DNA from: a virus
Lineage: Duplodnaviria > Caudoviricetes
Direction: 5' to 3' (one strand)
IMG/VR virus record: IMGVR_UViG_3300028277_000003
Coordinates: 1,436-65,435 of that record
Length of the DNA: 64,000 nt
Below the pieces are notes generated by a model. The model was not told the DNA's origin and searched no databases. It saw only the letters and a program-made list of their open reading frames with translations. The position numbers and the translations under genes were made by a program. Shown in pieces: positions 2,851 to 19,225 of the stretch. The number at the start of each line of letters is the position of its first letter. The first letter of the stretch is position 1.

Positions 2851-3010
2851 ACTCCCACCTGTATTGCGGTGATGATGAGTGGTATGGAAAGAAGAAGTTG
2901 CAACAACTTGAACCTGCGGAAAGGGAACCACCACGAATACAGCACGAAGCGTAACATATTAGAAGTATCGCACTAGTAGAGAAGGTGTTAGCAGTACGGC
3001 GGAGAGCAAA

Positions 3011-3274
3011 ATGAAACCAATAGATGCAGCAATAAAACTTCTAAAATCTACCCCTTCTGCTCAAGTCGCTATGCAACACGATATGCCTTCTTACATGGAA
3101 GAAGCACTAAATCAAAGCGGTAAAACTCGTTCTGATAGCCGAAAAAAGAAAGACAAGGCATCAAAACTACGTCAAAAAATAGACGACCACGAAGAAGATT
3201 CTCAAATAATTGATTTTTACAGACAGAATCATCCTGAGTGGTTTGATTCATTTAGAAGTGGCGAAGGTGAGTAA
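3011..3274 (+). CDS. Small tagged hypothetical protein
   Basis: GGAGAG RBS; begins MKPIDAAIKLLK-S, a tag variant. Confidence 0.75.
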   Translation: MKPIDAAIKLLKSTPSAQVAMQHDMPSYMEEALNQSGKTRSDSRKKKDKASKLRQKIDDHEEDSQIIDFYRQNHPEWFDSFRSGEGE

Positions 3275-3854
3275 ATTGGATAAAAAACCAAAGAAAGGCG
3301 TTGCAGTAGTTATCAGCATTGGCCCAAAAATGAAAACTAAGCCCACCGATGCCGCTACTCCCGAAATGCCAATAAAGAAGTATGGTTCAATGCCGATGAA
3401 AAAGGCATGGAGCATTCTAAAAAATGAAGATTACCCTCCTATGAGTACTCGCTCAACACCAAGAAGTAGCCCTTATCGTTTTATGAATGAAAATCGTATT
3501 CATAGAGAAGGGGCGCAAAATCACGCTAGAGAAGATGACATAAACGATTCAGAATACGAAGATATGGAAGATATGGAACCGCCATATGGTAAACCTGAGT
3601 TTGGTAATGAAGGTGCACGTGAAGCAGAAATGAATCAAGCAGAACGTGCTGCAATAATGGCAGAAGGTATGCCTGAAATGCAAAGGCCACGTAGTGCACC
3701 TAGACCGGGTGACCCTAGATTTAGAGGCTCTAGAAGAAGTGATGCACCTCCCAATTCAGAAGGGTATCCTCCATTCTTTAATTCAGATGTTGAAGATTCT
3801 GCTCATAATCAACCAAGACCTAGTATGCCAAGAGACGTTTTTGCAAACAGGTGA
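3267..3854 (+). CDS. Low-complexity tagged hypothetical protein
   Basis: In the 3210-3854 ORF; GTG at 3267 overlaps the previous gene end; internal PMKKAWSILK tag; P/R/E/M-rich, probably disordered. Confidence 0.7.
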   Translation: MSKLDKKPKKGVAVVISIGPKMKTKPTDAATPEMPIKKYGSMPMKKAWSILKNEDYPPMSTRSTPRSSPYRFMNENRIHREGAQNHAREDDINDSEYEDMEDMEPPYGKPEFGNEGAREAEMNQAERAAIMAEGMPEMQRPRSAPRPGDPRFRGSRRSDAPPNSEGYPPFFNSDVEDSAHNQPRPSMPRDVFANR

Positions 3855-4300
3855 TTGGGTTGACTGCATTCAATGAGGCTTGGCAATTTCTCAAAACCGA
3901 GCCAATTGATATGCATCAAGGCTCAGATGGAACTTGGCGTGCACCTCAGGAAGATATAACACCAGAAAAAAAATTGTGGCAACAAATCCAAGCAAGAAAC
4001 GCACAGGCTAGGCAAAACTTGAGTGAAGACGTTTCCCACGCTCCAACTCAGGAAGAATTAGAAGCACACCCTGATTTTGGTAAAACGTGGTTTCCTAATT
4101 ACATTCCTAAAGATTACACAGGTAACACGATGGTTAACTCAGAAACAGGCAATTACGACCCGAATGACCCTAAAGGTTGGCATCCTATGGGGGAACCGGA
4201 GTTACCTGAAGGCATGACTATGGGAAACTATTTGGAGAGACAAAGTGAGCAGAATCCTGAACATCGGCGGTTAGGCCAAAGTGATAACCTTAGGAGATGA
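3851..4300 (+). CDS. Tagged hypothetical protein
   Basis: GTGA overlap with the previous stop; AFNEAWQFLK tag near the N-terminus. Confidence 0.75.
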   Translation: MIGLTAFNEAWQFLKTEPIDMHQGSDGTWRAPQEDITPEKKLWQQIQARNAQARQNLSEDVSHAPTQEELEAHPDFGKTWFPNYIPKDYTGNTMVNSETGNYDPNDPKGWHPMGEPELPEGMTMGNYLERQSEQNPEHRRLGQSDNLRR

Positions 4301-4375
4301 TGCGATGTGGACTCGGTAACACTTGGTTTGGTCCTAAACCTACATCACAACCGGGGTATTCAGGATGGATGTAAA

Positions 4376-6670
4376 ATGGTATTCAATAAATCTTGGAACT
4401 ATTTGAAAAGTGATTGGTCGTCTACTGATAGTTTATATGGTAATGAGTATGAAGATGAACCTAGTATAGAAAGAAAAAGACATACAGTAGATAATAATTA
4501 TCAAACCACGATACCACAATTTGACCCAAGATTAGATGAAACAACTGGTTGGCAGGGTGTAGAACCTGTTACGGCTATTCGTGTACAAGGAAATCATCGA
4601 AAGGCAGGTCAAGCCGTACCACAAGATGGTTCTAATAAAAACTTTGAAGGAGGTGACCCAAGACTTCCACAAAGGATTCCCGAAATACCCCATGATGATG
4701 ACCCTGTTTGGGATGACCCCGACTCACGATGGAGTAAAGACCCCAAATCGGGTTCAAGATATTATATGTCCGGTAAATATGAAGATGGTAAGTATAACCC
4801 TCGCAGTAAAAAACATTTTGCTGATTTGAAAAATGCAAAGGCTGGAACTTGGGCTGCAAAAAATACTGTCGGAGATATTCGTAATTTATTCACTCATAAC
4901 AACCACGAAAAGTTAGTTTACATTCGTGGAAATCTTGATAAATATGGTAAAGTACACAGAAGAGATAGTGATGAAGCGCAAGAAGATTTAGCAGAAGCGT
5001 TTATCGAACACGACAAAGATATTCCACGCGAAAGCCTTGTTGAAGTACCATTACGCGACCATTATTTACATCAAACGAGAGAGATGGGCACTCCTGACCT
5101 TGGTCCTAATAGACGTTCTAGTGAAAAAGGACGAATTAGTAGGTGGAATGACAAACCAGTACCTTGGGGTGAATCAAGGGAACCAACTAAAAAAATAGAA
5201 GATATGAATGATGATGAGTTTCAAGAATTTCAAGAATCATTATACGATAAAACCCCTGAAGAAATCCATGAGTTAACAAAAGGAAGTCCAATGGACATAG
5301 CCTTCCAGTTGCTCAAGGGAAAGACAAGGCAATCTACTCTTTGGGGTTACGACCCAAAAATGGTAGAGAACTTACTCGCAGAAGATAACAGTAATATTTT
5401 CATCGCCGCTAAACCCGGAAACGATGATATGCCCGATGATGAACAAAATGAGCGTTCGGATAAAATGCTACAAGACCTCGCCGCACTCAAAGAGAAACAT
5501 GGTCACTTCGATATAACCAGTGCCACAGGTAGAGCGCAGTGGGACGCAGAACCATCTTTCATGCTCACTAACGTGCCTGATAGTGCAAGGGATTCCATTA
5601 ATGAGATAGCGGTAAGATACGGTCAGGAATCCATGGGAATCTCGGAAAAGGGGGAGAAAGGGGTGAACTACGTTACACCGGAGGGGGAGGTAAAGGACAA
5701 GTTCAGTAGTATGGAGATGCAGGAAAAACCGGAGTACTCTACAGATTTTCCGAGTAGTCAGAGGCTGGCTTTTACGGGTTGGCAGGAAGCAAATAAGGCT
5801 AATCCAATGCACATAGCCTTCCAGTTGCTTAAGGGTTGGGCAGGTGGTGTTAGAGGTATAGGTAATAATGCCACGGACAACATTTATCATTATCCACACG
5901 AATTAGATTACGGCTCGATAGACGAATATATGGGTGAGAATCCTGATGCTACTCTCGGTAGTATGGTAACGCCGTATCTACAAGGACAGTTTACAAATAA
6001 TCCTCCTACAAATCCGCCAGCCTATCAAAGTGAAAGACCTACTCAATTACAAAGCACAGTTCCGGCACCTTTTCCACAAACCCCTGAACAAACAAAAGGC
6101 GTTCAGAATCTTATTAATGAGGGATTCGATGACTACGAGTCTAGGGACAGCGTAAGAAAACCTCATTATGACAGCATGAATAATGCAGTCAGAGTATTAT
6201 CTAGAAATTTAAGAGGAAACCCTGCATACAATTTTACGCCACCGGGAAGATTGCGAGGTACTAAGGGACAGGGCGGTAGAAGTAGGCAAATGCAGAATAT
6301 GAAACTACGAAGTATGTTAGATACCCCTGTATCTCAAAGCATGGCAGAGATGAACATACCGAAACAAGGAATATCAATTGCGGCAGGTGAACCAATGGAC
6401 ATAGCCTTCCAGTTGCTCAAAGAGCGCAAGTCACCAGCAGCATTTGCTCACAAGTTAGAGTATGACAAGCAATATCAAAAGACACCTAAGCGCGTAAAGT
6501 ACCGTGAGCAATTAAACGCAGAGCGTAGGAAGCGTGGCATATACGGTAAGGGTGGTGCGGATGTTAGCCACACACAAGGTGGTAAACTCACTCTTGAAAG
6601 CGCACATGCTAATAGAGCAAGACATTTCAAAAACAAAGGCACTCTCCGCAGGGTCAAGGTGAAAAAATGA
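4376..6670 (+). CDS. Four-module tagged polyprotein (ART-like?, SAM-lyase/DUF3293-like, unknown, HNH-like)
   Basis: Likely start ATG 4376 (MVFNKSWNYLK tag); three internal PM[DH]IAFQLLK repeats delimit unrelated modules. Confidence 0.75.
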   Translation: MVFNKSWNYLKSDWSSTDSLYGNEYEDEPSIERKRHTVDNNYQTTIPQFDPRLDETTGWQGVEPVTAIRVQGNHRKAGQAVPQDGSNKNFEGGDPRLPQRIPEIPHDDDPVWDDPDSRWSKDPKSGSRYYMSGKYEDGKYNPRSKKHFADLKNAKAGTWAAKNTVGDIRNLFTHNNHEKLVYIRGNLDKYGKVHRRDSDEAQEDLAEAFIEHDKDIPRESLVEVPLRDHYLHQTREMGTPDLGPNRRSSEKGRISRWNDKPVPWGESREPTKKIEDMNDDEFQEFQESLYDKTPEEIHELTKGSPMDIAFQLLKGKTRQSTLWGYDPKMVENLLAEDNSNIFIAAKPGNDDMPDDEQNERSDKMLQDLAALKEKHGHFDITSATGRAQWDAEPSFMLTNVPDSARDSINEIAVRYGQESMGISEKGEKGVNYVTPEGEVKDKFSSMEMQEKPEYSTDFPSSQRLAFTGWQEANKANPMHIAFQLLKGWAGGVRGIGNNATDNIYHYPHELDYGSIDEYMGENPDATLGSMVTPYLQGQFTNNPPTNPPAYQSERPTQLQSTVPAPFPQTPEQTKGVQNLINEGFDDYESRDSVRKPHYDSMNNAVRVLSRNLRGNPAYNFTPPGRLRGTKGQGGRSRQMQNMKLRSMLDTPVSQSMAEMNIPKQGISIAAGEPMDIAFQLLKERKSPAAFAHKLEYDKQYQKTPKRVKYREQLNAERRKRGIYGKGGADVSHTQGGKLTLESAHANRARHFKNKGTLRRVKVKK

Positions 6671-7023
6671 GTAATTATCCGTCATACCCAACGACACCTC
6701 CTAAAAAATGTGAATATTGTAATGGTGCTGGAATTATTGACCCTTATGGTGATGAAGAGGATGTGGCTCAGGCTGACCCAAGATATCCACATGAAACATG
6801 TTGGAAGTGCAAAGGAACAGGTATACAGACAGAATGGTCATTTAACCCATATATGCCTTCTTTCCACCCCCCTTCTTTCCACCCCCCTTCTTACCACGCC
6901 CCTCCCCCGTCCAAAATGGAATTAGGAGAGCCAACAATTAATTTTGACCCTGAATGGCAAGAAATGAATAAAAGTTCTAGTGTTGCATTTTCATTAGCGT
7001 GGAACTTACTTAAATCAGAATAA
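6667..7023 (+). CDS. DnaJ-type zinc-finger protein with C-terminal tag
   Basis: CEYCNGAG and CWKCKGTG (two CxxCxGxG motifs), SFHPP tandem repeat, ends AFSLAWNLLKSE. Confidence 0.75.
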   Translation: MSNYPSYPTTPPKKCEYCNGAGIIDPYGDEEDVAQADPRYPHETCWKCKGTGIQTEWSFNPYMPSFHPPSFHPPSYHAPPPSKMELGEPTINFDPEWQEMNKSSSVAFSLAWNLLKSE

Positions 7024-7024
7024 A

Positions 7025-7108
7025 CTGTCCGATAATTCCGATTGTACGTCTATACAAATATACATAATATTACTTGTATATAGACAATACATTAGATTAT
7101 TCGGACAG
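7025..7108. repeat. Long imperfect intergenic inverted repeat (about 84 nt)
   Basis: ctgtccgataat pairs with attat(t)cggacag; inner tgta-c-gtcta-tacaa pairs with ttgta-ta-tagac-aa-taca; AT-rich loop. Confidence 0.75.
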
Positions 7109-7155
7109 CCAACCCTTAAGATGACCCCCACTGTGGGCTAACACGAGGTCACAGC

Positions 7156-7815
7156 ATGAGCAGAGATGTAGGGGATACAAACGAAATGAAAATGACAGGG
7201 TTGATTTTATCTCAATCGGCCTTAGTTGGATTAGCAATAGGAGTATATAGTTCGGGTTTATGGATGCCCGCAGGTTCAAGTGCAAGTTCAACAATAGATG
7301 GTATGACTTATGCGATGGGTGCGCTTGCAGTTCAAACAATAGCATATTATTTGTTTAAGATGTTCTTTGAACAGTCTATGAAAGAGAAAGTGGAAGTTGC
7401 AGAATTACAAAGAAACAGGCAGAATATGTATAGACAGCAGCAAATGGGCTTTGACCAACGTAGAGTAGATTTAGAATTAAGGCAAATGGAATTACAATTA
7501 GAAAATGAATTACGTATGATGCACGAAGACCCTAATAGAGTATTAGATAATAATCAATTTTTTAATGGTGGTGCCGTTAGTGCTGGCGTTAAAGGAGACT
7601 ATCATAATACCTTCAACCCCGGACTCGTACCTGCGCATGGTGCAAAAAATGAGGCACCTATGAATCTTGGACTTTCTAGTACACAGCAAGCAGTTGATTC
7701 ATTGAATCAATCAAATATACCATCGCGTACTTTACCTATACCACCAAGAGATGGACAACCATCAAACCAGCGAATGAAAAAAGATGGTACACCGGATTTA
7801 AGATATAGAACCTAG
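7156..7815 (+). CDS. Membrane protein (2 TM helices) with coiled coil
   Basis: Hydrophobic segments LILSQSALVGLAIGVYSSGLW and MTYAMGALAVQTIAYYLFKMFF, followed by a Q/E/R/L-rich helix; GAGGT RBS. Confidence 0.8.
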   Translation: MSRDVGDTNEMKMTGLILSQSALVGLAIGVYSSGLWMPAGSSASSTIDGMTYAMGALAVQTIAYYLFKMFFEQSMKEKVEVAELQRNRQNMYRQQQMGFDQRRVDLELRQMELQLENELRMMHEDPNRVLDNNQFFNGGAVSAGVKGDYHNTFNPGLVPAHGAKNEAPMNLGLSSTQQAVDSLNQSNIPSRTLPIPPRDGQPSNQRMKKDGTPDLRYRT

Positions 7816-7829
7816 TGTGGTAGGACAAG

Positions 7830-8117
7830 ATGGTGCTACCCGGACAACTAATTCCTTCTCCTTTGCGTATATTTCGCAATGTTGGTGATGACTCGGTAGA
7901 AGAAACTCTTCGAGCAATGCATTTAGCAAACACCGTCGATAATACATATGAATGGGGCATTGGTTGGATTAGAACCGTACTCGTATCTTTTATCGCTGTT
8001 ATGTGTGTATCTGCTATGGAAGCAAATTCAGATTGGAATCTTTGGGAATTAACAGTTGAATGGTGGTATCAAAAAGCAGCAGACTTTGGTTCTTGGCTTA
8101 CTAATAAGTTTAGTTGA
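7830..8117 (+). CDS. Small membrane protein
   Basis: TM segment WGIGWIRTVLVSFIAVMCVSAM and a Trp-rich amphipathic C-terminus. Confidence 0.75.
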   Translation: MVLPGQLIPSPLRIFRNVGDDSVEETLRAMHLANTVDNTYEWGIGWIRTVLVSFIAVMCVSAMEANSDWNLWELTVEWWYQKAADFGSWLTNKFS

Positions 8118-8123
8118 TGCTTT

Positions 8124-8840
8124 ATGGTTGCTGCTAGTGGTAGTGTATTAGTGGGCGTGGCCTTGTATGGTAAACAGGCATATAATAATTGGAAATCACG
8201 AAGAGTAGGGATTTATGGCGCAACTATGGTCGGTAAGACGACTTTAGATAAATACATGACCACTCCGGGCGAAATGGAAGAAATACCCGAACATGAAAGA
8301 ACTACACATTTCAAATTAGTCACTCGTTATATATTACCCAAACCCACTCGTAAAAGAGTTCGTTGGGAAGGTGAGAGAAGGGTTATTCATTCTGCTGACA
8401 TAGGTGGTGAAGAGCGTTTTTGGAATCTTTGGATTGATGATATGGTAAATAGACAATGTGAGTACGTTATATTCATGTTTGACGATAGAGCGTTTCGAGG
8501 AGGGGATGAGGCTTTACAGCAAATAGGAGGATTCAGATTCTTAGTAGACAGTATAATAAACAGAAATTATAGGTATAGAAATTGGAAGAGTTGGAGAAGA
8601 GGTAAGAAATACGTACCTAAGATGATATTACTAGTTGCAAATAAAGCAGATAGGTATTTTGATGAAAAGGCAGCACAGTTGTGGAGAGAGGGTAGAATTG
8701 GAGAACATAAGATTTTTGACCCTTTTAGAGAAGACCTAATTAGATTACAAAAAGCAGGCGTACCAACACGTCGTTCGTTCATGGCTACGCGTATAGGTTG
8801 GAACGTAGAAAACACATTATTAGAGATGATAGATTACTGA
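8124..8840 (+). CDS. Ras-superfamily (Arf/Rab-like) small GTPase with N-terminal hydrophobic anchor
   Basis: G1 GATMVGKTT, G2 candidate ERTT, G3 DIGGEERFWNLW, YVIFMFD, G4 LLVANKAD, G5-like MATRIGWNVE. Confidence 0.85.
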   Translation: MVAASGSVLVGVALYGKQAYNNWKSRRVGIYGATMVGKTTLDKYMTTPGEMEEIPEHERTTHFKLVTRYILPKPTRKRVRWEGERRVIHSADIGGEERFWNLWIDDMVNRQCEYVIFMFDDRAFRGGDEALQQIGGFRFLVDSIINRNYRYRNWKSWRRGKKYVPKMILLVANKADRYFDEKAAQLWREGRIGEHKIFDPFREDLIRLQKAGVPTRRSFMATRIGWNVENTLLEMIDY

Positions 8841-8854
8841 CCTCAAAAGTGACC

Positions 8855-8862
8855 TTTTTAAT
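8855..8862 (+). promoter_or_regulatory. Candidate archaeal TATA box for a (near-)leaderless transcript
   Basis: TTTTTAAT about 25 nt upstream of ATG 8884 in a short intergenic gap, preceded by purine-rich CAAAAG (BRE-like). Confidence 0.45.
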
Positions 8863-8883
8863 GTGGTAGGGTGTGGGAGTAAC

Positions 8884-9063
8884 ATGGGGAAGGGGACGAC
8901 GACTACTGCATTAGTTTCCACAGGAGGCTCTAGTAATTCACTTAGAACTACTATTCCTATGTGGATTGTAGAGCAGTTTGGTCTATCTGCTGGCTCTAAA
9001 ATAGAATGGACTTTAGAAGTTAAAAATGGGGAAATGTCTATTTCAGTATGCCCACAGGAATGA
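8884..9063 (+). CDS. AbrB/MazE/SpoVT-type DNA-binding protein
   Basis: SLRTTIPMWIVEQFGLSAGSKIEW matches the swapped-hairpin consensus; ATG 8884 preferred over GTG 8863. Confidence 0.8.
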   Translation: MGKGTTTTALVSTGGSSNSLRTTIPMWIVEQFGLSAGSKIEWTLEVKNGEMSISVCPQE

Positions 9064-10037
9064 TACATATGGTAATGGGAATGAATCCTTTCTATAATCC
9101 ACAACAACAAAATCTTGGTCAAGTAAATGACGCTACATTAATGGCGTTGTCACAACAAGGAAATCCAAATTTTTCACACGCTGCTCTAATGGAACAAGCG
9201 TCTGCACAACAACAAATGCAAAGAATGGCAGCAGAAAAAAATATAGAAGTTCCTAAAGTAAACTTCTATCCTTCCCGTCACGCTAATCCATACAAAGCAA
9301 GAAAACTAGATATTCGTCAAGCGTACAAACTTTTGGCTCCTACAAAACGTGCTTTTTTTGACCCTAGAAGATTATTTCGCCATAGTAAATATATGTATAA
9401 TAAAGATACTGCTGTATGTTGTGTAGATGGTTGTAATGTGAAACAATTAATACAACATGATAATTTATATTCTAGAATAACTGATGAAGAGAGCGGTAGA
9501 ACACTTTGGGATATGTATTGGCAGAATCCAGTTACCGGAGAGTCTGAAGCGTTTATTGCTAGAGAGGGAGTAACTAGTGGTCGTAAAATGAGGGCTACCT
9601 ATTGTCCTGAGCATTTACATTTGTATCATTTGTTATGTAGGTGGGAAGACCAACAAGATATTGAAGATGAAATGAAACCTAGTCGTTTCCGTGATAAAAT
9701 AAAAAGAGGAGTTAGTATAGTTACGGTACCGATATCTACTGTTACTGGTGGGCAACAGGGACCAACACACCCTATGATTACAAAATACGAAGGCTTCTTT
9801 GCAGAAATATCAGCAGATGCTAGAGGTAGTAATGGTATTAGTATGCAACATTATACTAATCCGGTTACTGGAGATAATGATATAACAACTATAACATTTG
9901 ACATGAGAATGTTCCAAAAAGAATTAATGGAAATGAATCAAACAAATCCAGCATTTCAGGATGTTCTAAACCAACAGGCTCAAGTCCTTAACCCTGCTCC
10001 GACGATACCGGAAGCAGTAATGGAGGGTATGCAATGA
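9060..10037 (+). CDS. Hypothetical protein, Q-rich N-terminus, putative Zn site
   Basis: Long ORF with ATGA coupling at 9060 (start could be 9069); CCVDGC ... YCPEH ligand pattern. Confidence 0.75.
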   Translation: MIHMVMGMNPFYNPQQQNLGQVNDATLMALSQQGNPNFSHAALMEQASAQQQMQRMAAEKNIEVPKVNFYPSRHANPYKARKLDIRQAYKLLAPTKRAFFDPRRLFRHSKYMYNKDTAVCCVDGCNVKQLIQHDNLYSRITDEESGRTLWDMYWQNPVTGESEAFIAREGVTSGRKMRATYCPEHLHLYHLLCRWEDQQDIEDEMKPSRFRDKIKRGVSIVTVPISTVTGGQQGPTHPMITKYEGFFAEISADARGSNGISMQHYTNPVTGDNDITTITFDMRMFQKELMEMNQTNPAFQDVLNQQAQVLNPAPTIPEAVMEGMQ

Positions 10038-10678
10038 CTATGGGATGGAACAATCAACAGCCAACTACTAATGCGTTAAATCTTAGTCAAACAGGTGCAC
10101 CTATGGGTGGGTATAACGGCGGCTACTCAGCCCCACAACAAGGTTGGTATCAAACTCCACAACAACCCGGAATGTTAAATTCTATGTTTGCTGGTGCAAC
10201 TGGTCAAGACCCGTATAATCAACAAGCCATACTACCACCAAGTGAGACTGAGATTTTAATGACCATGTTAAACACTTCTTATCCAGTAGAAAGATTTCTT
10301 CAATCCCCAATCTTTCCTATGCTTTTAGAAGTTATTAGTCAGATTAATACATTTTCATTACTAAATGTAATTAAAAATGCTAGTTATAATTTTGATGAAG
10401 AGGCTGGTGTTTTTACATTAGATACTGCTAGTTTACCAACTGAACTACAAACTATGAGTTCAGAAAATATAATGTCACAAATGAACTCTATGACTAATAT
10501 GATTAATCAAACAGTTTCAAATGCAGATACACAGAGACAGCAAACAATGCAAAATGCACAACAGAGTATGCTACAAAATCAATTGTCTAATGCTCTGATG
10601 GACCCCGGTATATTAAATAATGCAGCACAAGGTACTGGTACTTTCTTCCGTAGTTTCTTAACAGGTGGAAGAGCATAA
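10034..10678 (+). CDS. Q/N/M/G-rich hypothetical protein
   Basis: GGAGG RBS, ATGA overlap, 214 aa; low-complexity ends around a helical core. Confidence 0.75.
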   Translation: MTMGWNNQQPTTNALNLSQTGAPMGGYNGGYSAPQQGWYQTPQQPGMLNSMFAGATGQDPYNQQAILPPSETEILMTMLNTSYPVERFLQSPIFPMLLEVISQINTFSLLNVIKNASYNFDEEAGVFTLDTASLPTELQTMSSENIMSQMNSMTNMINQTVSNADTQRQQTMQNAQQSMLQNQLSNALMDPGILNNAAQGTGTFFRSFLTGGRA

Positions 10679-10947
10679 TGTTAGGTGGCAATGCCTCTAG
10701 TAATTTTGGTGTACCAGTACCAAGACAAATAGCAGATATGTCAATGCATATGCTTGCGCCAAAAAGAGAAGTAATTGTAGATATGGTAATGGTACAATTA
10801 ATTAGTGCTATACTTATATTCATGGGGATTTTAATATTCAAAAATGGCGATATTAACCAAGGAGAAATGTCTATGTATTTGGTAGGAGTCTTTTTGTCCT
10901 TTATTCTCTTGACATCTATATATCAGCGAATAACGCGGTTTGTGTAA
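10678..10947 (+). CDS. Small 2-TM membrane protein
   Basis: Hydrophobic MVMVQLISAILIFMGILIF and MYLVGVFLSFILLTSIY; TAATG overlap with the previous gene. Confidence 0.75.
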   Translation: MLGGNASSNFGVPVPRQIADMSMHMLAPKREVIVDMVMVQLISAILIFMGILIFKNGDINQGEMSMYLVGVFLSFILLTSIYQRITRFV

Positions 10948-10955
10948 GCAATAGT

Positions 10956-10963
10956 GATTAAGC
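10956..10963 (+). promoter_or_regulatory. Candidate TATA box
   Basis: GATTAAGC about 25 nt upstream of ATG 10984, which sits in the same AACATG context as 8884. Confidence 0.35.
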
Positions 10964-10983
10964 ACACCTTACTCCGCATTAAC

Positions 10984-11667
10984 ATGGTTGAGCGAGAGCC
11001 AGTTATGAAACGTTCCTGTGCATTCTGTCAAAACGATGACAGAGTGGGTTTGGAAGAGGCCATTAAAAATGGTGAATTATCTTGTGCTCAATTAGATAAA
11101 GATATGAGTTGGAGGTCTAATACTGCCGACCGTCATTATCGTAATCACATGGGTCAATACCATATGGCTGCAAATCCATCTTGTTCTATTTGTTCAAGTG
11201 AAAATAGAGCAGATTATGAAAACAGATTCTTTACCGATGGTACTGAATCAGAATTAATAGCAGAAGAATTAGAAATTAAGGAGACTACAGTATATCATCA
11301 TATGAAGCATCACTTTCAACCGTTAGTTCAACGCTCGGCAGCGACAGAAGTTGCAATTACAGTCGGAAATGAAATTACAGTATTACGAAGTAATGTCGAA
11401 AAACTCAACGGAAAACTTTCAGAATTAATGGATGAAGGGAGCGTACATGAAGAAGGGTTTGTGAGAAATGCAGTAACTTTACATAAAGAAGTAAGAGAAT
11501 CAATAAAAGATTTAACCGGCTTCCAAGATAAATGGGGTACACAAATAGACGGTACTCAGGTAAATCAAACAATCAATATACTAAAAATAGAATTAGCAAA
11601 AGAAAGTCCTGAAAGTTGGAAAAGAATCAAAAGTAAGTTACAGGCAGAAATGGAGGAAGTTATATGA
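10984..11667 (+). CDS. Duplicated CxxC/HxxxH zinc-HTH protein with coiled coil; candidate terminase small subunit
   Basis: CAFC...RHYRNH and CSIC...HHMKHH repeats, each enclosing an HTH-like segment; then a coiled coil and the NQTINIL beta-tail. Confidence 0.5.
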   Translation: MVEREPVMKRSCAFCQNDDRVGLEEAIKNGELSCAQLDKDMSWRSNTADRHYRNHMGQYHMAANPSCSICSSENRADYENRFFTDGTESELIAEELEIKETTVYHHMKHHFQPLVQRSAATEVAITVGNEITVLRSNVEKLNGKLSELMDEGSVHEEGFVRNAVTLHKEVRESIKDLTGFQDKWGTQIDGTQVNQTINILKIELAKESPESWKRIKSKLQAEMEEVI

Positions 11668-12068
11668 TACCTGTGTCAGACTTAATGCAAGTCCAACATC
11701 CGGGTTATCGTACTTTTATACAATCTAATAATATGTCTGCTATACATTATCCTTTATTTTTTGATTATTGTATATGTGTGTCAGAAAGATTTAGACATTA
11801 TGCATATCAAGAGGCTAATGTACTAATTAATGAAAATAGTCTAATGCACATAATAGATTGTATAAAGCAATTAGACGATACAGATGAGCCTGAAATAGTA
11901 TTACCGTTAAGAGAACAAATAAGACATTCATGTTACGAGTTCTTAGAACATTGTAATGATATGTCTACTAAATTCAAAAGCCCAACCAGTATTTCTTTAT
12001 TCTACAATGAGTTAGGACAACTCGTGATGCAAACTGCTTTTGAATTTGCGGGGGTACAACATGACTAA
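11664..12068 (+). CDS. Hypothetical protein
   Basis: GGAGG RBS, ATGA overlap, 134 aa. Confidence 0.7.
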   Translation: MIPVSDLMQVQHPGYRTFIQSNNMSAIHYPLFFDYCICVSERFRHYAYQEANVLINENSLMHIIDCIKQLDDTDEPEIVLPLREQIRHSCYEFLEHCNDMSTKFKSPTSISLFYNELGQLVMQTAFEFAGVQHD

Positions 12069-13461
12069 GCCAGTTAAGATTTTGAAGTCAGGTATGACAA
12101 GTACTGGTAGCGATACTCGTATGTATGGACCGAGAGGCGAATCCTCTCACATGTTCCGTAGTAATCATGAAGATGAAGGGGATGTTTACGGAGCAGAAGG
12201 TGGTGAATATCGTGATGCGAGAATTGACCGCAAAAAGAAAGAGCGTAAAGAAAGAGAATCTGAAATGAATAAGTTAAGACATATTTCAGTAACTACAGCA
12301 GATTTACCTCCTGAAGACGAGGAAGAAAAAGATGAAGACTTAGAACCAACAAAATTCGATAATGAACTTGAGCCTTCTTTAATGACCGGTACTCCGGGTA
12401 ATTTCGGTGCTATGACTAGTATGGCTAATCAGGCTAGAGGACCGGGTTTTGCCGGTGGGCATAATTTTGCTATGGGAGAACCAATGGACATAGCCTTCCA
12501 GTTATTGAAAGGCGGGAGAGCCGGTTTTATAGGTAAAAAACCAAAGAGGGAAAAGGGTGCCAAAGCAAGAAGAGCGCATAAAGAAAGGCAGAAGAAATGG
12601 CGGCCTTCGACTGGAGAGTTCAAGAGACCTCCGGGTGGTATGACACCTGCTAGTGCTACATCTAGAAGAGCAAAGGCAAGAATGCGAGGTATTGCTGGTA
12701 GCAAGAAAACAGGGTTAGGTAGAGCACATCTTGCTGTCGAGATGTCTCACAGAGGTGTAAAAACTAAACAGCCTATGTCAAAAGATGTAAAGAGATATAG
12801 ACAATACCTAGGTCAGTCCGAAGCAAGAAAGCGTTTAGGTAACATACGAACTGTATCTTCTACACCTTCTAGATTTGGTGCACGTTCATACAAAGCGGGG
12901 TTAACTGGCGGTGGTACACTACAAAGTCTACTCCCCGGACAAGCCCAACAAATGAGAAGACCATCACTTAGGTCAATTAGACCTCCACCATTAATGCCAC
13001 CTACTGCACCAAACAGACCTACTTTACCTTCACCTTCCATACCGAGTCCTCCTGTAATGTCCCAACCAAGAATGGGAGTTGGGGTACAAAGTATGGCCGG
13101 CCAAAGTCCAAGTTACAGACCTAAGTTACCTAGTTCTTCGATACAAGGTGCACCTGTAATGACTGGTGAGATTGGAGAAGGTAGTGAACTACAAAAAAGG
13201 GGACTATCATACTACGACACCACAGAATTAAGACAATTACTCCTTGATGCTAAAAGAGCCTTGAACCGTAAAGAGAATAAGAAAAAAGGTAAAGGGGAGA
13301 AAAGCGTAGATGCTGCTAGTCATTTACCTGCCCATACAGAAGCAGGCCCGAAACAGACCACAAGACCTGAAGGCGCTACAGAAGATGCAAATAATGAGCC
13401 TCGCACATTTGGTATTAATCCTTTAGACCATCTTACAAGTAGAGGCGGTAGAACACCTTGA
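12061..13461 (+). CDS. Tagged low-complexity protein with acidic, basic and Pro-rich segments; probable internal head protein
   Basis: ATG 12061 after GGGGT; contains a PMDIAFQLLK copy separating an acidic N-terminal part from an R/K-rich part. Confidence 0.75.
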   Translation: MTKPVKILKSGMTSTGSDTRMYGPRGESSHMFRSNHEDEGDVYGAEGGEYRDARIDRKKKERKERESEMNKLRHISVTTADLPPEDEEEKDEDLEPTKFDNELEPSLMTGTPGNFGAMTSMANQARGPGFAGGHNFAMGEPMDIAFQLLKGGRAGFIGKKPKREKGAKARRAHKERQKKWRPSTGEFKRPPGGMTPASATSRRAKARMRGIAGSKKTGLGRAHLAVEMSHRGVKTKQPMSKDVKRYRQYLGQSEARKRLGNIRTVSSTPSRFGARSYKAGLTGGGTLQSLLPGQAQQMRRPSLRSIRPPPLMPPTAPNRPTLPSPSIPSPPVMSQPRMGVGVQSMAGQSPSYRPKLPSSSIQGAPVMTGEIGEGSELQKRGLSYYDTTELRQLLLDAKRALNRKENKKKGKGEKSVDAASHLPAHTEAGPKQTTRPEGATEDANNEPRTFGINPLDHLTSRGGRTP

Positions 13462-15872
13462 TTGACTCATTCATCATAATGAAATCTCTTTTACTTAGAA
13501 AGGGAGACGGTAATTACAACCTGTTTGCAGGCCAATTACAAGCCTTGAGATACCCTCCACCTGATTCTCATAATCCTGACCCTGACAGAATGGATATTCC
13601 AGCATTCGCACACACCGGAGCACATGGTGAAAACGAATCAGGTATTCCCGGCGTAGGTCACGTATACCCCGGTCAATGGAAAAAAGGAATGCATGATGAA
13701 AATGTCTACGGCGATGAATCAGGCGGAGAACACATGCATGGTATTGACGGCATTATACGAGCAGTTGGTGATTCTCTTTTACAACACGGTATTAAAGTAC
13801 CTGCTAAAGATGTAATACAAAAAGCCATAGACATGCATAATCAAGACCATAAAGAAAATAATCATTTACCAAATGTAGATGACGTTGCTTGGAGAAAAAT
13901 ACATTTATCGCCATTAACAGAACAAGACCATAGAGTTAGAAGTAATTATGACCAAGATGGTAATTTAACAACAACATACACTAATATGCATGGTGATGAC
14001 CATAGAAATGGTACTTATTTAGAATCTTATGCAGTACCGTTCAATAATCAACTTGGTCAAGTTATGGGTGAGTTAGGTCATCCTACACCTAACCAACATA
14101 GTTGGATAAAGAAACCTTACGTTAAACCACATAGATTACATTTAGTTCCTGATGGAGAGGGCGGAATGGAATTTGGCGCACAAGCGGTTGACACAGGTAA
14201 AGTAACTGATGGGAGAATACAACCGAGTCAAGCAGCAAAATGGGGAGGTAGAATGCCTGATAGTAGAGCCTTTCAAAATATATCATCTTGGGGTATTGCA
14301 CATCATTACCCAAACACATATTACATTCCTCAAAGAGACGCAGCCCCCGGACAAAAAAGCCAACCAAGAACACAAACAATTAATAGTTTTCTTCATCATA
14401 TGGCTTTAACGACTGGGAAAGACAGAGATGGTATTCTGAGTAATCTGATAGTTGATAGTTCAGGTGCTATGAAACATTTAGCAAACATACCGGGAGAAAT
14501 AAACGGTAAACCGATAAAAGCGTTATTACAAACCCCTGAAGGACAATTAGAGGCAGCAAAATATTTCTCTCAGTTTCCAGCATTTCAAGCAGTTTATGGA
14601 GAAAATAGAAATCCTAAATTTAATGAAGACGGTAGTGTGAAACAACCGGGTCAAACTGTTGGAAGAATGAATCATTTTTATGGTCAAAGATATGGTGATA
14701 CAGCAGAAGAAGGAAAAGGATTCGACCACTTTATGAGCCATAGTAGTAAAATTGGTGTTGAACACCAATTAACTGGTAAAATAGGCCATCATAATAGAGC
14801 AAAAGATGCTTGGAGTAATGTTGTGCTTGCAGCATCGCAAGGAATTAACCACATGGATGATGAAATATCTCCTGAGGATTTACAGGCCGCTAATATTAAT
14901 TTGTACGATACTCCTGAAACTAGGGCTAATGCTCCAAATATAAAAGCAATATTAGACCATTTGTTTCACACCCACACTATAGCAGGTGGACACGAAAGAA
15001 AAGAAATACCTACACAAGAAGAATTACAACAACTACAACCTATTGTAGATAATATAATTCAAGGTGGAACACATGAAGATAGAACTCAACTTGGCGTACC
15101 CGACTATATTAGATATTCAGAGATGCCTAATTCTATGACACCTGTGGGTGCATCTATGCAACCCGAAGAAAGTTCGTTAAAACCTAGAGATGGAAACGCA
15201 AAGGGTCAAGGCGGTGCACCTCTTCCGATTACCGGCGGGGCGGCGACGGCTGCAACTAATGCCGCACCACCACCTCAAACTCCACCTCAAACTCCACCAC
15301 CAGTCAGACAACTACAAGTAAACCCGAATACGCCGGGTTTAAACCCTGAGCAACAAATGAGAGCAAAGTTTGGTAACTCATCTCCTGAAACAGTTCAGAA
15401 TGTTATGTCTAGATTACCTCAATCACAATACCATCCTCAACAAGCGCAGACACTTTACCCCGGAGAAGCCCAAGTACCACCAGTCGGCGTATTATCTCCT
15501 CAAAGACAACAGCAAAGACAACAAGAGTTTCAACAAAATATGGGTGACCCCTACCAACGTTTTCTTTCTGACTATCCTACTAAAAGTAAAGATGGACATA
15601 ATGCTGCCATGGATAGATTAATCAAAGCGGTAGAAATTCTACAAATAGAAGATGCAAGAAGCGATGACGAAATAATCAAACACATGCCTTCAGTACAATT
15701 AAGTGTAAATTCAATTACAGATATTCTATATTTAGCGAAAATGTTAGAGATTACATCTATGGATGTTAGTACAATATTAAACACTAAAGGCGATTGGCAA
15801 AGAATATCTAAGACATACGGATACTCTGACAGAGTAGTAAAAGTCGTCAAGGTTTCATTCGGAGGTGTCTAG
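13458..15872 (+). CDS. Large His/Gln/Pro-rich hypothetical protein, probable internal virion protein
   Basis: 804-aa ORF with TTGA coupling; LLRK-G near the N-terminus, LIK-A near the C-terminus, PPQT repeats. Confidence 0.75.
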   Translation: MIDSFIIMKSLLLRKGDGNYNLFAGQLQALRYPPPDSHNPDPDRMDIPAFAHTGAHGENESGIPGVGHVYPGQWKKGMHDENVYGDESGGEHMHGIDGIIRAVGDSLLQHGIKVPAKDVIQKAIDMHNQDHKENNHLPNVDDVAWRKIHLSPLTEQDHRVRSNYDQDGNLTTTYTNMHGDDHRNGTYLESYAVPFNNQLGQVMGELGHPTPNQHSWIKKPYVKPHRLHLVPDGEGGMEFGAQAVDTGKVTDGRIQPSQAAKWGGRMPDSRAFQNISSWGIAHHYPNTYYIPQRDAAPGQKSQPRTQTINSFLHHMALTTGKDRDGILSNLIVDSSGAMKHLANIPGEINGKPIKALLQTPEGQLEAAKYFSQFPAFQAVYGENRNPKFNEDGSVKQPGQTVGRMNHFYGQRYGDTAEEGKGFDHFMSHSSKIGVEHQLTGKIGHHNRAKDAWSNVVLAASQGINHMDDEISPEDLQAANINLYDTPETRANAPNIKAILDHLFHTHTIAGGHERKEIPTQEELQQLQPIVDNIIQGGTHEDRTQLGVPDYIRYSEMPNSMTPVGASMQPEESSLKPRDGNAKGQGGAPLPITGGAATAATNAAPPPQTPPQTPPPVRQLQVNPNTPGLNPEQQMRAKFGNSSPETVQNVMSRLPQSQYHPQQAQTLYPGEAQVPPVGVLSPQRQQQRQQEFQQNMGDPYQRFLSDYPTKSKDGHNAAMDRLIKAVEILQIEDARSDDEIIKHMPSVQLSVNSITDILYLAKMLEITSMDVSTILNTKGDWQRISKTYGYSDRVVKVVKVSFGGV

Positions 15873-16535
15873 ATGGGTAAGGTCTATGTTTTAAGAAAAG
15901 ACGCCGATGCTAATCAATCGTCAGCCTTTATGATGGGCGGCGGCCAATCGGGAGGCGGTTTAGGAAACGTCATGTATAATCTACCAAATTGGGTTACACC
16001 TGAGGAAGCGGTTTATGGAACGTATGACAAACAGGGCAACGTCACATCGCCCGGAGCATTACCCACGGATGGTACTGCCACTCGCGAACAAGGTAAACAT
16101 GCAGAGAAATGGGCTAGAGGATTAGGCAGAGCGGGTCTATATGCTGGTGCTGGGTTAGGCGGTCTTAGCGCATTTTACAATTTGAGTTCTAGCGGTCAAC
16201 CGCTTGACTTTAGTGGGATGGCAAATATAGGTACTGCTGCTTATACTGGGGGACGGACTGCACAACCGTATTCTACCACTTTAGGAGCACGAATCGGGGT
16301 AAGAAGAGGAAGAGGAACGGGTACACCTGAGAATAATACTACTGTGCCTACAATCGCCTCTCCAAAACAATTACCTCCTCCTCGGACAATAGATGCTGAG
16401 TTTACAGAAGAAGAAGCGATGTCGCCTACTAATTCTGCAATGGATTCTTTACGAGAGGAGAGTAGAAAACAAAATTGGTTTAATAATAATGATAATTATC
16501 ATCCAATGAATGCTTTACGACAGGAGTATCCATGA
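15873..16535 (+). CDS. Gly-rich protein with glycine-zipper hydrophobic segment
   Basis: GGAGGTG RBS; MGKVYVLRK-D start; GLGRAGLYAGAGLGGLSAFY. Confidence 0.75.
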   Translation: MGKVYVLRKDADANQSSAFMMGGGQSGGGLGNVMYNLPNWVTPEEAVYGTYDKQGNVTSPGALPTDGTATREQGKHAEKWARGLGRAGLYAGAGLGGLSAFYNLSSSGQPLDFSGMANIGTAAYTGGRTAQPYSTTLGARIGVRRGRGTGTPENNTTVPTIASPKQLPPPRTIDAEFTEEEAMSPTNSAMDSLREESRKQNWFNNNDNYHPMNALRQEYP

Positions 16536-18013
16536 GTAAAAGTAAAGAAGAAATGGAAGCATTTATTCTTAATATGGATAAAGAGATGTCTAAGAAATCA
16601 TTCAAGTATTTTTTTGTAGATATGCTAGGTTTCTTGTACAATCATCATCATGAGTCTTGGAAAGTAGGTTTAGAAGAATCACAGTATTTTTGCGTTAAAG
16701 CGTCGAGAGACCACGGAAAATCTGTTTTCTTTATGATGTATGCCTTATGGTTAGCGGCATACAAACCTAATACCCACGTTATGATATTCTCCCACTCTCT
16801 TGAACAAACTCTTGAACACATGCGCTTTGTACGTAATATTATAGAAGGGAACGATATATTAAGACATTTGAAACCCCAAGGCAAACCTTGGGCTAAATCT
16901 TACTTTGAGTTTTCCAATGGTAGTCGTATGATGGCGAAGTCAGTTGGGGGTGCAACTCGTGGTTTCCACCCCGACATAGTAGTGTGTGATGATATTTTAT
17001 GGGGTACTACCGCCAGTGAACTTGCTAAAACAGCAGATTGGTTCTATGGGGTTTTGTTACCTGTACTTCACCACAGCAGTAAACTGATGATGGTAGGTAC
17101 TCCGTTTAGTTACAATGATTTGTATGCAGAATTAGAAGAGAAAGAAACATTTCGTGTTGAGACATATCCTGCGATAAATGAAGAGGGTGTTGCGCTATGG
17201 CCTGAGAGATGGGATTTAGGCGCACTAGAACATAGAAGAATGTCTATGCCCGCTATACAATTTTCACGTGAATATCTTTGTGAACCAATACATGACGTAG
17301 CCAGTATGTTTCCCGGCCCTATGTTAGAAAAATGTAGAGACCCGAAATTAGTTCTTTTAGATAGAGCAGAGACAAATTACAATGAGGAAGGTGAAGCAGA
17401 TGGTGTATTTGGTCAACACTTTATTGGACATGACCCCGCTATATCTTCTGACAAAAATGCTGATTTTACCGCTATGACTGTAATGAGACAAAAACCGGAT
17501 GAAATAATAAAAGAAATTGTCCATGTTGTACATGAAAGAGGTATGTCGTCTATGGCACAAAAAAGAATGATGGTCATGTTAAATAGTCGTTTTTCTCCTG
17601 ATTTAATCGAACTTGAAGGTAACAACTTTCAAAGAATGTTAGCACAAGAAATGAGAGAATTACGAGCAGATATGCCTATTCGTGTTTTCATGACTACTAG
17701 AGCAAAGAAAGAATCTCTTTTCATGTCCTTACTTCTTGCATTTGAGCAAGGACATATAAAACTCCCATACGGTGATGAAAGGAGCAGGGCTTATACTCAC
17801 AAAGTGGAACAAGAATTGAATAGATTCGGTATGCAAAAAAGTGGAAAGTTAGAAAGTGTGGGCGTTCATGACGATTTGGCTATGAGTCTTGCGCTTGCTA
17901 ATTGGGCATCTAAAGAGTTCAAGGGTAGCGTAACACTCTTAGATGATTATATGCCCGGATTTGATGAGTGGTTCAGGGGAGACGAGAAAACAGACTCTCT
18001 ATTGATACCTTAA
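16532..18013 (+). CDS. terL: Terminase large subunit
   Basis: Walker A ASRDHGKS, Walker B IVVCDD, coupling motif VGTP, FSREYLCEP, nuclease IGHDPA..D and HDDLAMSLALA. Confidence 0.95.
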   Translation: MSKSKEEMEAFILNMDKEMSKKSFKYFFVDMLGFLYNHHHESWKVGLEESQYFCVKASRDHGKSVFFMMYALWLAAYKPNTHVMIFSHSLEQTLEHMRFVRNIIEGNDILRHLKPQGKPWAKSYFEFSNGSRMMAKSVGGATRGFHPDIVVCDDILWGTTASELAKTADWFYGVLLPVLHHSSKLMMVGTPFSYNDLYAELEEKETFRVETYPAINEEGVALWPERWDLGALEHRRMSMPAIQFSREYLCEPIHDVASMFPGPMLEKCRDPKLVLLDRAETNYNEEGEADGVFGQHFIGHDPAISSDKNADFTAMTVMRQKPDEIIKEIVHVVHERGMSSMAQKRMMVMLNSRFSPDLIELEGNNFQRMLAQEMRELRADMPIRVFMTTRAKKESLFMSLLLAFEQGHIKLPYGDERSRAYTHKVEQELNRFGMQKSGKLESVGVHDDLAMSLALANWASKEFKGSVTLLDDYMPGFDEWFRGDEKTDSLLIP

Positions 18014-18081
18014 GGTGATGGAAATGAATAATACAATAGTAGATGAAAAGGACATGAATACTAGTACATGGAGGTAATTAT

Positions 18082-19224: not shown

Positions 19225-19225
19225 T

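Follow-up and report, generated by a model that had tools for sequence, protein, structure and literature searches.

A five-gene cassette around an ArvA/Arf-like small GTPase in magrovirus-type viruses: a candidate membrane-bound GTP switch module

The DNA analysed here is a stretch of 64,000 nucleotides (nt), hereafter the window, which covers positions 1,436-65,435 of the 65,435-base IMG/VR record IMGVR_UViG_3300028277_000003, a record rated 60% complete. It carries a cassette of five genes in which a divergent small GTPase is preceded by two small integral membrane proteins and followed by two orphan soluble proteins, and the comparison of loci indicates that the five are inherited as one unit across divergent magrovirus-type viruses. 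The best-supported reading is that the cassette encodes a membrane-bound GTP switch module of the virus on the host cytoplasmic membrane, and this is a candidate function. The egress of archaeal tailed viruses is described as an open question in the review PMC10791045, and a conserved viral GTPase with membrane partners of its own gives a concrete, clonable target for it. The likeness to the archaeal GTPase ArvA ties the cassette to the one euryarchaeal GTPase for which a role in driving membrane budding has been shown to date. A Ras-superfamily switch is also rare in a virus of a prokaryote, and the variable residue at its catalytic position bears on the GTPase mechanism and on the evolutionary history of Arf-like switches at membranes beyond eukaryotes and Asgard archaea. 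No paper describing the five-gene cassette was found in the searchable literature, nor any mentioning a GTPase in magroviruses or Poseidoniales viruses, where the PDF supplements of PMC5434244 might list the gene. Term look-ups in PMC5434244, PMC10160649, PMC11706807 and PMC8651126 gave no GTPase, and 'magrovirus' together with 'GTP' gave only a mention of GTP cyclohydrolase.

Composition and conservation of the cassette

Which genes belong to the cassette? An earlier note on this DNA, made from the sequence alone, had described a small GTPase in a cluster of seven open reading frames (ORFs) on the + strand, and all seven are present, as follows (lengths in amino acids, aa).

7156-7815, + strand: cassette gene 1, 219-aa membrane protein (ORF, alignment A5 of 20 sequences, hydropathy)
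7830-8117, + strand: cassette gene 2, 95-aa single-pass membrane protein, transmembrane segment 46-63 (ORF, alignment A4)
8124-8840, + strand: cassette gene 3, divergent ArvA/Arf-like small GTPase, 238 aa (motifs, alignments, model, profiles)
8863-9063, + strand: AbrB/MazE-type small DNA-binding protein, 66 aa (PF04014, E 1.7e-5, 25.1 bits against a cut-off of 24.7)
9048-10037, + strand: cassette gene 4, 329-aa orphan Cys/His protein (alignments A3 and A8)
10034-10678, + strand: cassette gene 5, 214-aa Q/N-rich protein (ORF)
10678-10947, + strand: small protein with two transmembrane segments, 89 aa, clade-specific (transmembrane segments)

In 80 viral loci anchored on the GTPase (GTPase 80), the 219-aa protein was found 78 times, the 95-aa protein 79, the 329-aa protein 80, the Q/N-rich protein 80, the 89-aa protein 79, the helix-turn-helix (HTH) protein that follows it 80 and the AbrB-type protein 55 times; the misses are mostly loci cut by contig ends. 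An independent entry point was given by 41 loci anchored on the terminase gene and having at least 9 kb upstream. There the GTPase was found in 41, the 219-aa protein in 40, the 95-aa, 329-aa, Q/N-rich, 89-aa and HTH proteins in 41 each, and the AbrB-type protein in 35. The gene order is constant in 80/80 loci of the first set and 41/41 of the second. A profile of distant members then gave 80 further loci, and tblastn recovered the full order in 59 of the 68 that have enough flank. Five of the remaining nine, read by ORF (L213, L217, L221, L242 and L246), have the same build. First comes a protein of 133-278 aa whose two hydrophobic segments are accompanied by a charged helical stretch, then one of 72-82 aa with a single transmembrane segment, then the GTPase, and after it a 225-260-aa homologue of the 329-aa protein and a Gln-rich protein of 237-278 aa. 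The earlier note's worry that these genes might not co-occur in relatives can thus be set aside.

How far does the unit extend? The order 2-transmembrane/coiled-coil protein, 1-transmembrane protein, GTPase, Cys/His protein and Gln/Asn-rich protein is kept in the far-diverged clades of L086, L213 and L242, where the GTPase is only 33-39% identical and the flanking genes are different. The upstream flank is a thermosome gene in L213, L217 and L221, and a capsid gene plus three small genes in L242 and L246. The L086 locus, on a Poseidoniales contig, has the five genes together with the small 2-transmembrane protein, the HTH protein and the genes that follow. Because the five stay together across clades while the flanks differ, we take the core as five genes, and the AbrB-type gene, the 89-aa protein and the link to the HTH gene are clade-level additions. 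Of the cluster drawn in the earlier note the five-gene core therefore stands, while the AbrB-type gene is accessory (55/80) and the second 2-transmembrane gene occurs in two clades only.

The partner proteins are orphans almost throughout. PHROGs, NCBIfam and PADLOC gave no family for any cassette protein apart from one weak NCBIfam match of the GTPase given below, and Pfam searches with the partner proteins of three other clades returned only noise (E≥0.0076). The 219-aa protein has hydrophobic segments at 13-37 and 49-71, then an R/E/Q-rich helical, coiled-coil-like stretch and a disordered tail ending in KKDGTPDLRY. Among 20 sequences GLILxQ and TYAMGA..AYY.FKMFF (in the hydrophobic segments) and RRxDxELR..E.QLE are nearly invariant, and the C-terminal KKDGTPDLRYK is frequent. 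Its 19-aa Kyte-Doolittle maxima are 1.57 for the first segment and 1.08 for the second, so the two segments that had been called earlier are there, the second being weak in the window and clearer in other clades. By the positive-inside rule both ends would be cytoplasmic. Analogues of like build stand in L086, L213, L221 and L242, and neither this protein nor the 214-aa protein has a Pfam, PHROG, NCBIfam or PADLOC family.

The 95-aa protein has a soluble N-terminal helix (F15, DDSVEETLRAMH, NTVDNTYE; as a pattern, F15..DDSVEETLRAMHxANTVDNTYE) and a Trp-rich tail. Its conservation lies in this helix and not in the transmembrane segment, which would suit a docking site, and the 72-82-aa analogues stand directly 5' of the GTPase gene in L086 as in L213, L217, L221, L242 and L246. 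The 329-aa protein has a basic KARKxxIK..L.P.KR segment, Cys124, and the motif C186-P-x-H189-L-H-L-Y-H194. Within the window clade C124, C186, H189, H191 and H194 never vary. Over four clades this is true of C124 alone: C186 and H189 are each kept in 10/11 sequences, with C186 replaced by Ser in L213 and H189 by Ala in L217. The gene reported as a Zn protein is thus present, but with one invariant Cys across clades we do not call its product a zinc protein. Its AF2 model is mediocre (pLDDT 68.8); a structural match to connexins was rejected as noise (best Z 5.2), and there was no PDB profile match, no Pfam match and no usable match in the ESM Atlas. In the 214-aa protein a conserved helical centre lies between ends rich in Gln, Asn, Met and Gly, and the C-terminal tail is apolar and Gly-rich; analogues of the protein follow gene 4 in L086, L213, L217, L221, L242 and L246. 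The 89-aa protein has an 81-aa analogue in L086, and none was seen after gene 5 in L213, L217, L221, L242 or L246. The AbrB-type gene is inserted between the GTPase gene and gene 4 in 55/80, 35/41 and 16/68 loci of the three sets and is absent in L086, L213 and L242; its product is a possible regulator of the cassette.

The GTPase between Arf/Sar and ArvA

The window protein has all five G motifs of a Ras-superfamily (TRAFAC) small GTPase. G1 is G32ATMVGKT39; G2 is Thr60, the switch-I threonine within a conserved ERTxH in the whole-family alignment; G3 is D92IGGEERFWNLW103; G4 is N173KAD176; and G5, at about 220-222, is MAT in the window and ISA in other clades, the family pattern being (I/M)(S/A)(A/T). 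Together with Thr60, the family-specific residues R110, D120, R122, P165 and H195 are conserved across all clades in the alignment. In 152 distinct family sequences G1 is found in 150, DxxG in 152 and NKxD in 152. The position of the catalytic Gln after DxxG is occupied by Q in 75, E in 45, D in 22 and H in 10 of them, and the window protein has Glu96 in place of the Gln, just as had been remarked before. The His found at this position in some viral clades also occurs in Sar1 and SR-beta. The census points to a family-wide conservation of nucleotide binding and not of the canonical hydrolysis residue, so hydrolysis is probably slow or helped in trans by a partner.

The gene is strongly constrained. 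Its ratio of non-synonymous to synonymous substitution rates (dN/dS) is 0.041, compared with 0.11-0.23 for its neighbours in a single pair (window and L003), which suggests strong purifying selection. Over the 41 terminase-anchored loci the large terminase (TerL) has a median identity to the window of 82.5%, followed by the GTPase (70.6%), the HTH protein (67.5%), the 329-aa protein (64.2%) and the 95-aa protein (61.7%), and by this measure the GTPase is the most conserved gene of the cassette. The hydrophobic N-terminus of the earlier note is borne out as an apolar stretch which is kept in all clades; by hydropathy it has about 15 apolar or small residues, too short for a standard transmembrane helix. 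The stretch has a low to moderate hydrophobic moment (window 0.29, other clades 0.36-0.53).

Where else is the family found? With E≤0.001 as the threshold a word-indexed search gave 541 proteins; identity to the window GTPase is 68-94% among the 120 listed, some of which have source labels of the Tara ocean survey. A full HMMER pass over 1.84 billion cluster representatives gave 76 at the same threshold, of which eight full-length ones were aligned and belong to the same family over the whole protein. Some JGI records label the family automatically as 'GTPase SAR1 family protein'. A check of 958 candidates gave no fused or longer form, a result of little weight as evidence. Over 301 Poseidoniales genomes the viral profile matched only on a viral contig of one single-cell genome (G001), in which the Arf profile PF00025 had the same viral gene as its sole match. 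This argues that the gene is not a recent capture from the host. A tblastn search of 50,697 phage records gave no match at E≤0.01, in a collection that apparently holds no magrovirus records or hides the near ones.

The fold model is consistent with a six-stranded G domain of a Ras-superfamily small GTPase. The alignment-based AF2 model (pLDDT 88.2, pTM 0.85) has a helix at 3-23 followed by the six-stranded domain, which has additional helices behind switch I and in the G4-G5 interval. Against 48,161 chains VIA-align ranked Arf6 first and second, with Z 17.6 (root-mean-square deviation 2.5, 162 residues aligned) and 17.5, and Sar1 third with 17.0; next came an Asgard RagA-like protein (16.0), SR-beta (15.9) and the best Rab, that of mimivirus (15.2), within a small-GTPase range of Z 13-17.6. 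The nearest solved structures are thus Arf/Sar, by a margin of about 2 Z units over the best Rab. A Foldseek search of the PDB yielded at least 500 matches (E≤0.001), of which the 48 listed are all Ras/Rab/Rho/Arf-type G proteins or complexes containing one. It does not separate the subfamilies, all being near E 1e-8, and the highest target TM-score among the 48 matches listed (0.71) belongs to GerdArfR1 (8oum_E). In the viral structure library BFVD 49 of the 50 matches listed are Ras/Rab/Ran-type proteins of named giant viruses of eukaryotes. The earlier description as a complete small GTPase is therefore well supported by motifs, homologues, model, fold matches and dN/dS, and of its "Arf/Rab-like" label the Arf part survives as an Arf/Sar neighbourhood, while the Rab part does no better than generic Ras-like.

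Sequence profiles are less decisive. The best GTPase matches in PDB profile searches were the Asgard ArfR structure 8OUN (E 2e-5 to 6e-5), then Arl8A/B (about 5e-4) and then Rab33B, and one such search placed repeated RecA chains second and third. The window GTPase has sub-cut-off Pfam matches to Roc (E 0.0043) and MMR_HSR1 (E 0.027), a match to NCBIfam TIGR00231, small_GTP (E 0.012-0.018), which is the exception mentioned above, no PHROG match, and no match to PF00025 at E≤0.1. Of 31 family members, 18 have weak, sub-cut-off Pfam matches to Roc, 7 to MMR_HSR1 and 6 to Arf (E≤0.1, best Arf 0.0048), and the L086 GTPase reaches 17.3 bits with PF00025, where the cut-off is 22.3.

In which points does the viral protein resemble known membrane GTPases? 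The Arf family supplies its top structural neighbours and shares the helix before the G domain, and the switch II motif DIGGQxRFxxxW resembles that of Arl8. Against this, the profile E-values are all weak, 2e-5 or worse, and the viral protein is 40-60 residues longer with inserts, its N-terminus in the window being apolar and not clearly amphipathic. The Arf family is defined by an interswitch toggle that releases the helix on GTP binding, as stated in bioRxiv 10.1101/2024.02.28.582541, the source also of the Asgard ArfR GerdArfR1 (PDB 8OUM/8OUN). SR-beta, a membrane-anchored Arf-like GTPase, has structural Z scores of 15.9 (2fh5_B), 15.1 and 14.2; it differs in a true N-terminal transmembrane anchor and in its SRX/longin partner, of which structure and Pfam searches found no counterpart in the cassette. 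The giant-virus Ras/Rab GTPases (mimivirus Rab, PDB 5XC5, Z 15.2) are likewise virus-encoded members of the Ras superfamily. However, they are recent captures of eukaryotic Rab, Ran and Ras which act on host endomembranes, whereas the magrovirus GTPase has no close cellular source and is carried by a tailed virus that infects a prokaryote.

Among the proteins of archaeal genomes ArvA appears to be the nearest cellular relative. ArvA (OapA, HVO_3014) drives the formation of extracellular vesicles in Haloferax volcanii, where its knockout gives no extracellular vesicles and its overexpression gives hypervesiculation (Mills et al., PNAS 2024, PMC10927574). Its operon partners are ArvB (DUF2073, OapB, PF09846) and ArvC, a Zn-ribbon protein (PMC10927574; PMC10791045). 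For comparison an ArvA set was made of the GTPase gene adjoining ArvB, which was obtained from 11/12 loci, one locus having none. The hhalign comparison of the viral family with ArvA gave a probability of 95.2 and E 2.7e-8 over 69 columns in the N-terminal half, which run from the end of the N-terminal helix through G1, switch I and beta-2/beta-3 to G3. When the viral profile was run on five ArvB-bearing archaeal genomes, ArvA was the top match in 5/5 (E 1.6e-4 to 3.8e-3), every other GTPase having E 0.08 or weaker and matching at the P-loop only. In the joint alignment both share (I/V)G(I/V)YG..xGKTTL, a switch-I G(D/E)(V/I)..(I)P.E.R, NKxD and ISA..G.N(I/V)E, as well as QHP(I/V) before G5, which contains the viral invariant His195, and in both an N-terminal helix abuts beta-1. 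Both also sit in small operons with non-enzymatic partners, one of them with Cys motifs, and ArvA acts on the cytoplasmic membrane.

There are differences too. At G3 ArvA reads DTPG, and the virus Dx(G/A)G[QEDH] and then RFWNLW. A helical insert of about 27 residues comes after G3 in ArvA; the virus has its inserts behind switch I and in the G4-G5 interval. The ArvA partners ArvB and ArvC are soluble and have no relation to those of the virus, and the viral cassette adds two integral membrane proteins. Cassette gene 4 compared with ArvC and ArvB gave probabilities of 1.3 and 0.1, and no cassette protein matches either of them in Pfam. The relation is also one-way: the ArvA profile over 101 Poseidoniales genomes gave one weak partial match, and the viral GTPase of G001 was not retrieved at E≤0.001. 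ArvA itself scores best against EngA/Der/Era in the PDB profile search. Because the shared motifs are set against the DTPG G3, the insert, the one-way profile and the unrelated partners, we place the viral family in an ArvA/Arf/Sar neighbourhood and file it in neither family. ArvB (PF09846) was found in 123/301 sampled genomes of the host phylum and in 0/101 of the order Poseidoniales; both censuses are samples with many incomplete genomes. The Poseidoniales may thus be without the known euryarchaeal vesiculation operon.

A proposed membrane switch and its alternatives

What might such a module do? On the best-supported reading the GTPase would work at the host membrane together with the 2-transmembrane/coiled-coil and 1-transmembrane proteins. 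In its GTP form its N-terminal helix would, like those of Arf, Sar1 and ArvA, engage the membrane from the cytoplasmic side, and the Cys/His and Gln-rich proteins might act as regulator, effector or scaffold. Late in infection the assembly would bend, vesiculate or weaken the membrane of a host without a rigid wall and so release the virions, the nucleotide state setting the time of release and hydrolysis being probably slow or supplied in trans. We hold this late, membrane-deforming release function only tentatively, at somewhat less than an even chance. The lack of an endolysin remarked in the earlier note is consistent with it, since no endolysin-type Pfam family was found among window ORFs of at least 100 aa, and so is the position of the cassette, which adjoins the packaging and head genes (TerL, portal, protease, major capsid protein) and is co-oriented with them. 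Would the small membrane proteins then be holins? The 219-aa and 89-aa proteins resemble class II phage holins in build, being small, with two hydrophobic segments and charged tails, in a late-looking string of genes of a lytic virus, and the 89-aa protein may be regarded as a holin-like candidate by this analogy. They differ in that there is no holin family match in Pfam or PHROG and no adjacent endolysin, and the 219-aa protein is long, with its coiled-coil-like domain. A holin-endolysin pair is reportedly present in Adrikavirales.

Several points weigh against a role in release. The window represents 60% of the genome, so a conventional lysis gene could be elsewhere. In one clade the cassette lies after the thermosome gene, at the boundary of replicative and structural genes, which makes "late" expression not certain. 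The virion is tailed and non-enveloped and has no obvious need for budding. The similarity to ArvA is weak and one-sided, G3 differs, the profile alignment covers only the N-terminal half, and the cassette partners have no relation to ArvB or ArvC. It is only the composition of the N-terminal segment that suggests membrane binding, and its hydrophobic moments, 0.29-0.53, are low to moderate. No predicted contact joins two cassette proteins: the one complex modelled, of the GTPase, GTP and Mg with the 95-aa membrane protein, gave ipSAE 0.00 and 0.30 where the mark is 0.32 and, as a single pair without controls, speaks neither for nor against a contact.

A bolder form of the proposal is a self-contained vesiculation machine, in which a much-altered ArvA/Arf-type GTPase, with its own membrane receptors and scaffold, is brought to a host order seemingly without ArvABC, and GTP-driven budding or scission gets tailed virions out of wall-less archaeal cells, or between them, with neither holin nor endolysin. 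If true, it would be a coat-GTPase-like egress system encoded by a prokaryotic virus, but we consider it unlikely.

Is the membrane the target at all? The GTPase with its membrane partners might instead tether the assembly of capsids or the packaging of DNA to the membrane or organise it there, or govern the change between replication and packaging, with no breach of the membrane. The window and L086 clades favour such a platform, for there the cassette runs without a gap into the Zn-ribbon/HTH/coiled-coil protein at 10954-11667, a possible small terminase, and on past basic proteins as far as TerL at 16532; in the clade of L242 it comes directly after the capsid gene, and its conservation is comparable to that of core morphogenesis genes. 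On the other hand, the flanking genes change between clades while the five stay together. The cassette proteins are also without the PMDIAFQLLK motif of the neighbouring large proteins, save a faint echo in gene 4 of two clades, and no tailed virus is known to require a small GTPase, or membrane proteins, to assemble or fill its head. An assembly or packaging platform is thus rather improbable.

Equally improbable is a takeover of the host surface, in which vesicle shedding or envelope remodelling would serve receptor removal, decoys, superinfection exclusion or a division block, and not release. Small membrane proteins are typical of exclusion systems. The GTPase is ArvA-like, and overexpressed ArvA causes hypervesiculation (PMC10927574); in a host order seemingly without ArvB and with no clear ArvA, vesiculation would be a new capacity brought by the virus. 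Exclusion and decoy genes, however, are usually accessory and variable, while this cassette is fixed in 80/80 and 41/41 loci with a strongly constrained GTPase. There is also no PADLOC match, though PADLOC targets host defence. The least probable alternative makes the protein a soluble regulatory GTPase of translation, ribosomes or signalling, linked to membrane genes by operon economy, or else a structural nucleotide-binding pseudo-switch: the weak Pfam matches to Roc and MMR_HSR1 beside Arf (18, 7 and 6 of 31), the unconserved catalytic position (Q 75, E 45, D 22, H 10 of 152) and the EngA/Der/Era likeness of ArvA itself agree with it, but every clade retains the apolar N-terminal helix, the GTPase gene stays next to the same two membrane-protein genes when everything around them is rearranged, and the top structural neighbours, Arf6 and Sar1, are membrane-helix GTPases.

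Probable upstream signals, virus and neighbouring genes

The 132-nt gap upstream of the cassette and the surrounding part of the genome contain the following features.

7025-7108, + strand: nested hairpin/palindrome (RNA fold, inverted repeats)
10954-11667, + strand: 237-aa Zn-ribbon/HTH/coiled-coil protein (two CxxC-type pairs; GerE/HTH_20-like, E 3-5e-4, sub-cut-off)
16532-18013, + strand: T4-type large terminase, TerL (Pfam/PHROG library scans)
18082-19224, + strand: HNH endonuclease-like ORF between TerL and portal (PHROG 5046, E 4.8e-7)
19226-20971, + strand: portal (library scans)
27966-29327, + strand: S78 prohead protease (library scans)
29357-30526, + strand: HK97-type major capsid protein (library scans)
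37060-37833, + strand: SAP-domain protein among the tail genes (Pfam, E 3e-9)

The hairpin has a folding energy of -23.5 kcal/mol (z -5.36), and 0/200 shuffles fold as well. Between it and the ATG at 7156 there is a TATA-like CTTAAGA and then GAGGTCA, a ribosome-binding-like motif. By eye, the hairpin arms GTCCGAT(A/G)AT and GTCTATACA recur 5' of the same gene in L003, L007, L010, L015 and L019, and other subclades have a GC-rich hairpin with a CTTTAT(G/C) element at the same place. The hairpin and motifs probably are a terminator or operator plus the cassette promoter, which suggests that the cassette starts a transcription unit, and the AbrB-type protein could act on the palindrome. In the marine RNA libraries of one study two short contigs are identical to 7240-7464 and 7824-8066, and a 40-nt piece to 3588-3627; they leave the rest of 3000-20000 uncovered and are no proof of transcription and give no timing.

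To which virus does the cassette belong? All long ORFs from 3210 to the window end are on the + strand. The best matches of the major capsid protein in the phage collection are HCTV-5, HVTV-1 and HCTV-1 (31-34% identity, E 1e-52 to 8e-54), and 11/11 records matching it are archaeal viruses. The HK97-type head genes nearest to haloarchaeal Druskaviridae, a genome of about 100 kb (contigs of relatives reach about 110 kb) and a Marine Group II link are the marks of a magrovirus, and all are found here. The distant L086 relative of the cassette lies on a 106-kb contig of the Poseidoniales single-cell genome G001, and a thermosome gene, which is described for group A magroviruses in PMC5434244, adjoins the cassette in one clade (L213, L217, L221). 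Because of the capsid matches, the Poseidoniales contig and the thermosome gene, the window is assigned on sequence grounds to a magrovirus-type tailed virus (order Magrovirales) of Marine Group II archaea, which abound in the ocean; there are no replication genes in the window. Four short cassette-bearing contigs (L082, L083, L084 and L085) are binned to Maricaulis, Parvibaculum and Asgard ('Promethearchaeati') metagenome-assembled genomes; they are almost certainly mis-binned viral contigs and no evidence for those hosts.

Some observations concern the neighbouring genes. The 237-aa HTH protein has a helical C-terminal half, is conserved at 64-68% and lies three genes upstream of TerL. It follows the cassette in the clades of the window and of L086 only, and is a candidate for the small terminase or for a late regulator. 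A motif (E/S/N)PM(D/H)IAFQLLK(G/E) occurs in three copies (5297-5350, 5813-5866 and 6401-6454) in a 787-aa protein (ORF 4307-6670), and the same type of motif occurs once, at 12490-12543, in a 473-aa basic protein (ORF 12040-13461). A degenerate copy at 6982-7020 ends a 118-aa Zn-ribbon protein (ORF 6667-7023). Strict copies were found in 36/85 loci, that is, the 80 relatives plus five distant loci, the distant five having none; the N-terminus of gene 4 in two distant clades reads VSFQLLK or VSYELLK. The motif may be a cleavage signal of the prohead protease, a capsid-targeting signal or a shared docking peptide. At 1117-1965 there is an HMGL-like gene of the pyruvate carboxyltransferase/aldolase family (Pfam E 1.8e-26), which may be an auxiliary metabolic gene. 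The structural block contains two giant ORFs, 22299-27920 (1873 aa) and 40662-57503 (5613 aa), whose sole Pfam match (E 7.4e-7) is to a Laminin_G_3/concanavalin-like stretch that comes early in the larger one. The 5613-aa protein, of remarkable size for an archaeal virus, may be a fibre or adhesin.

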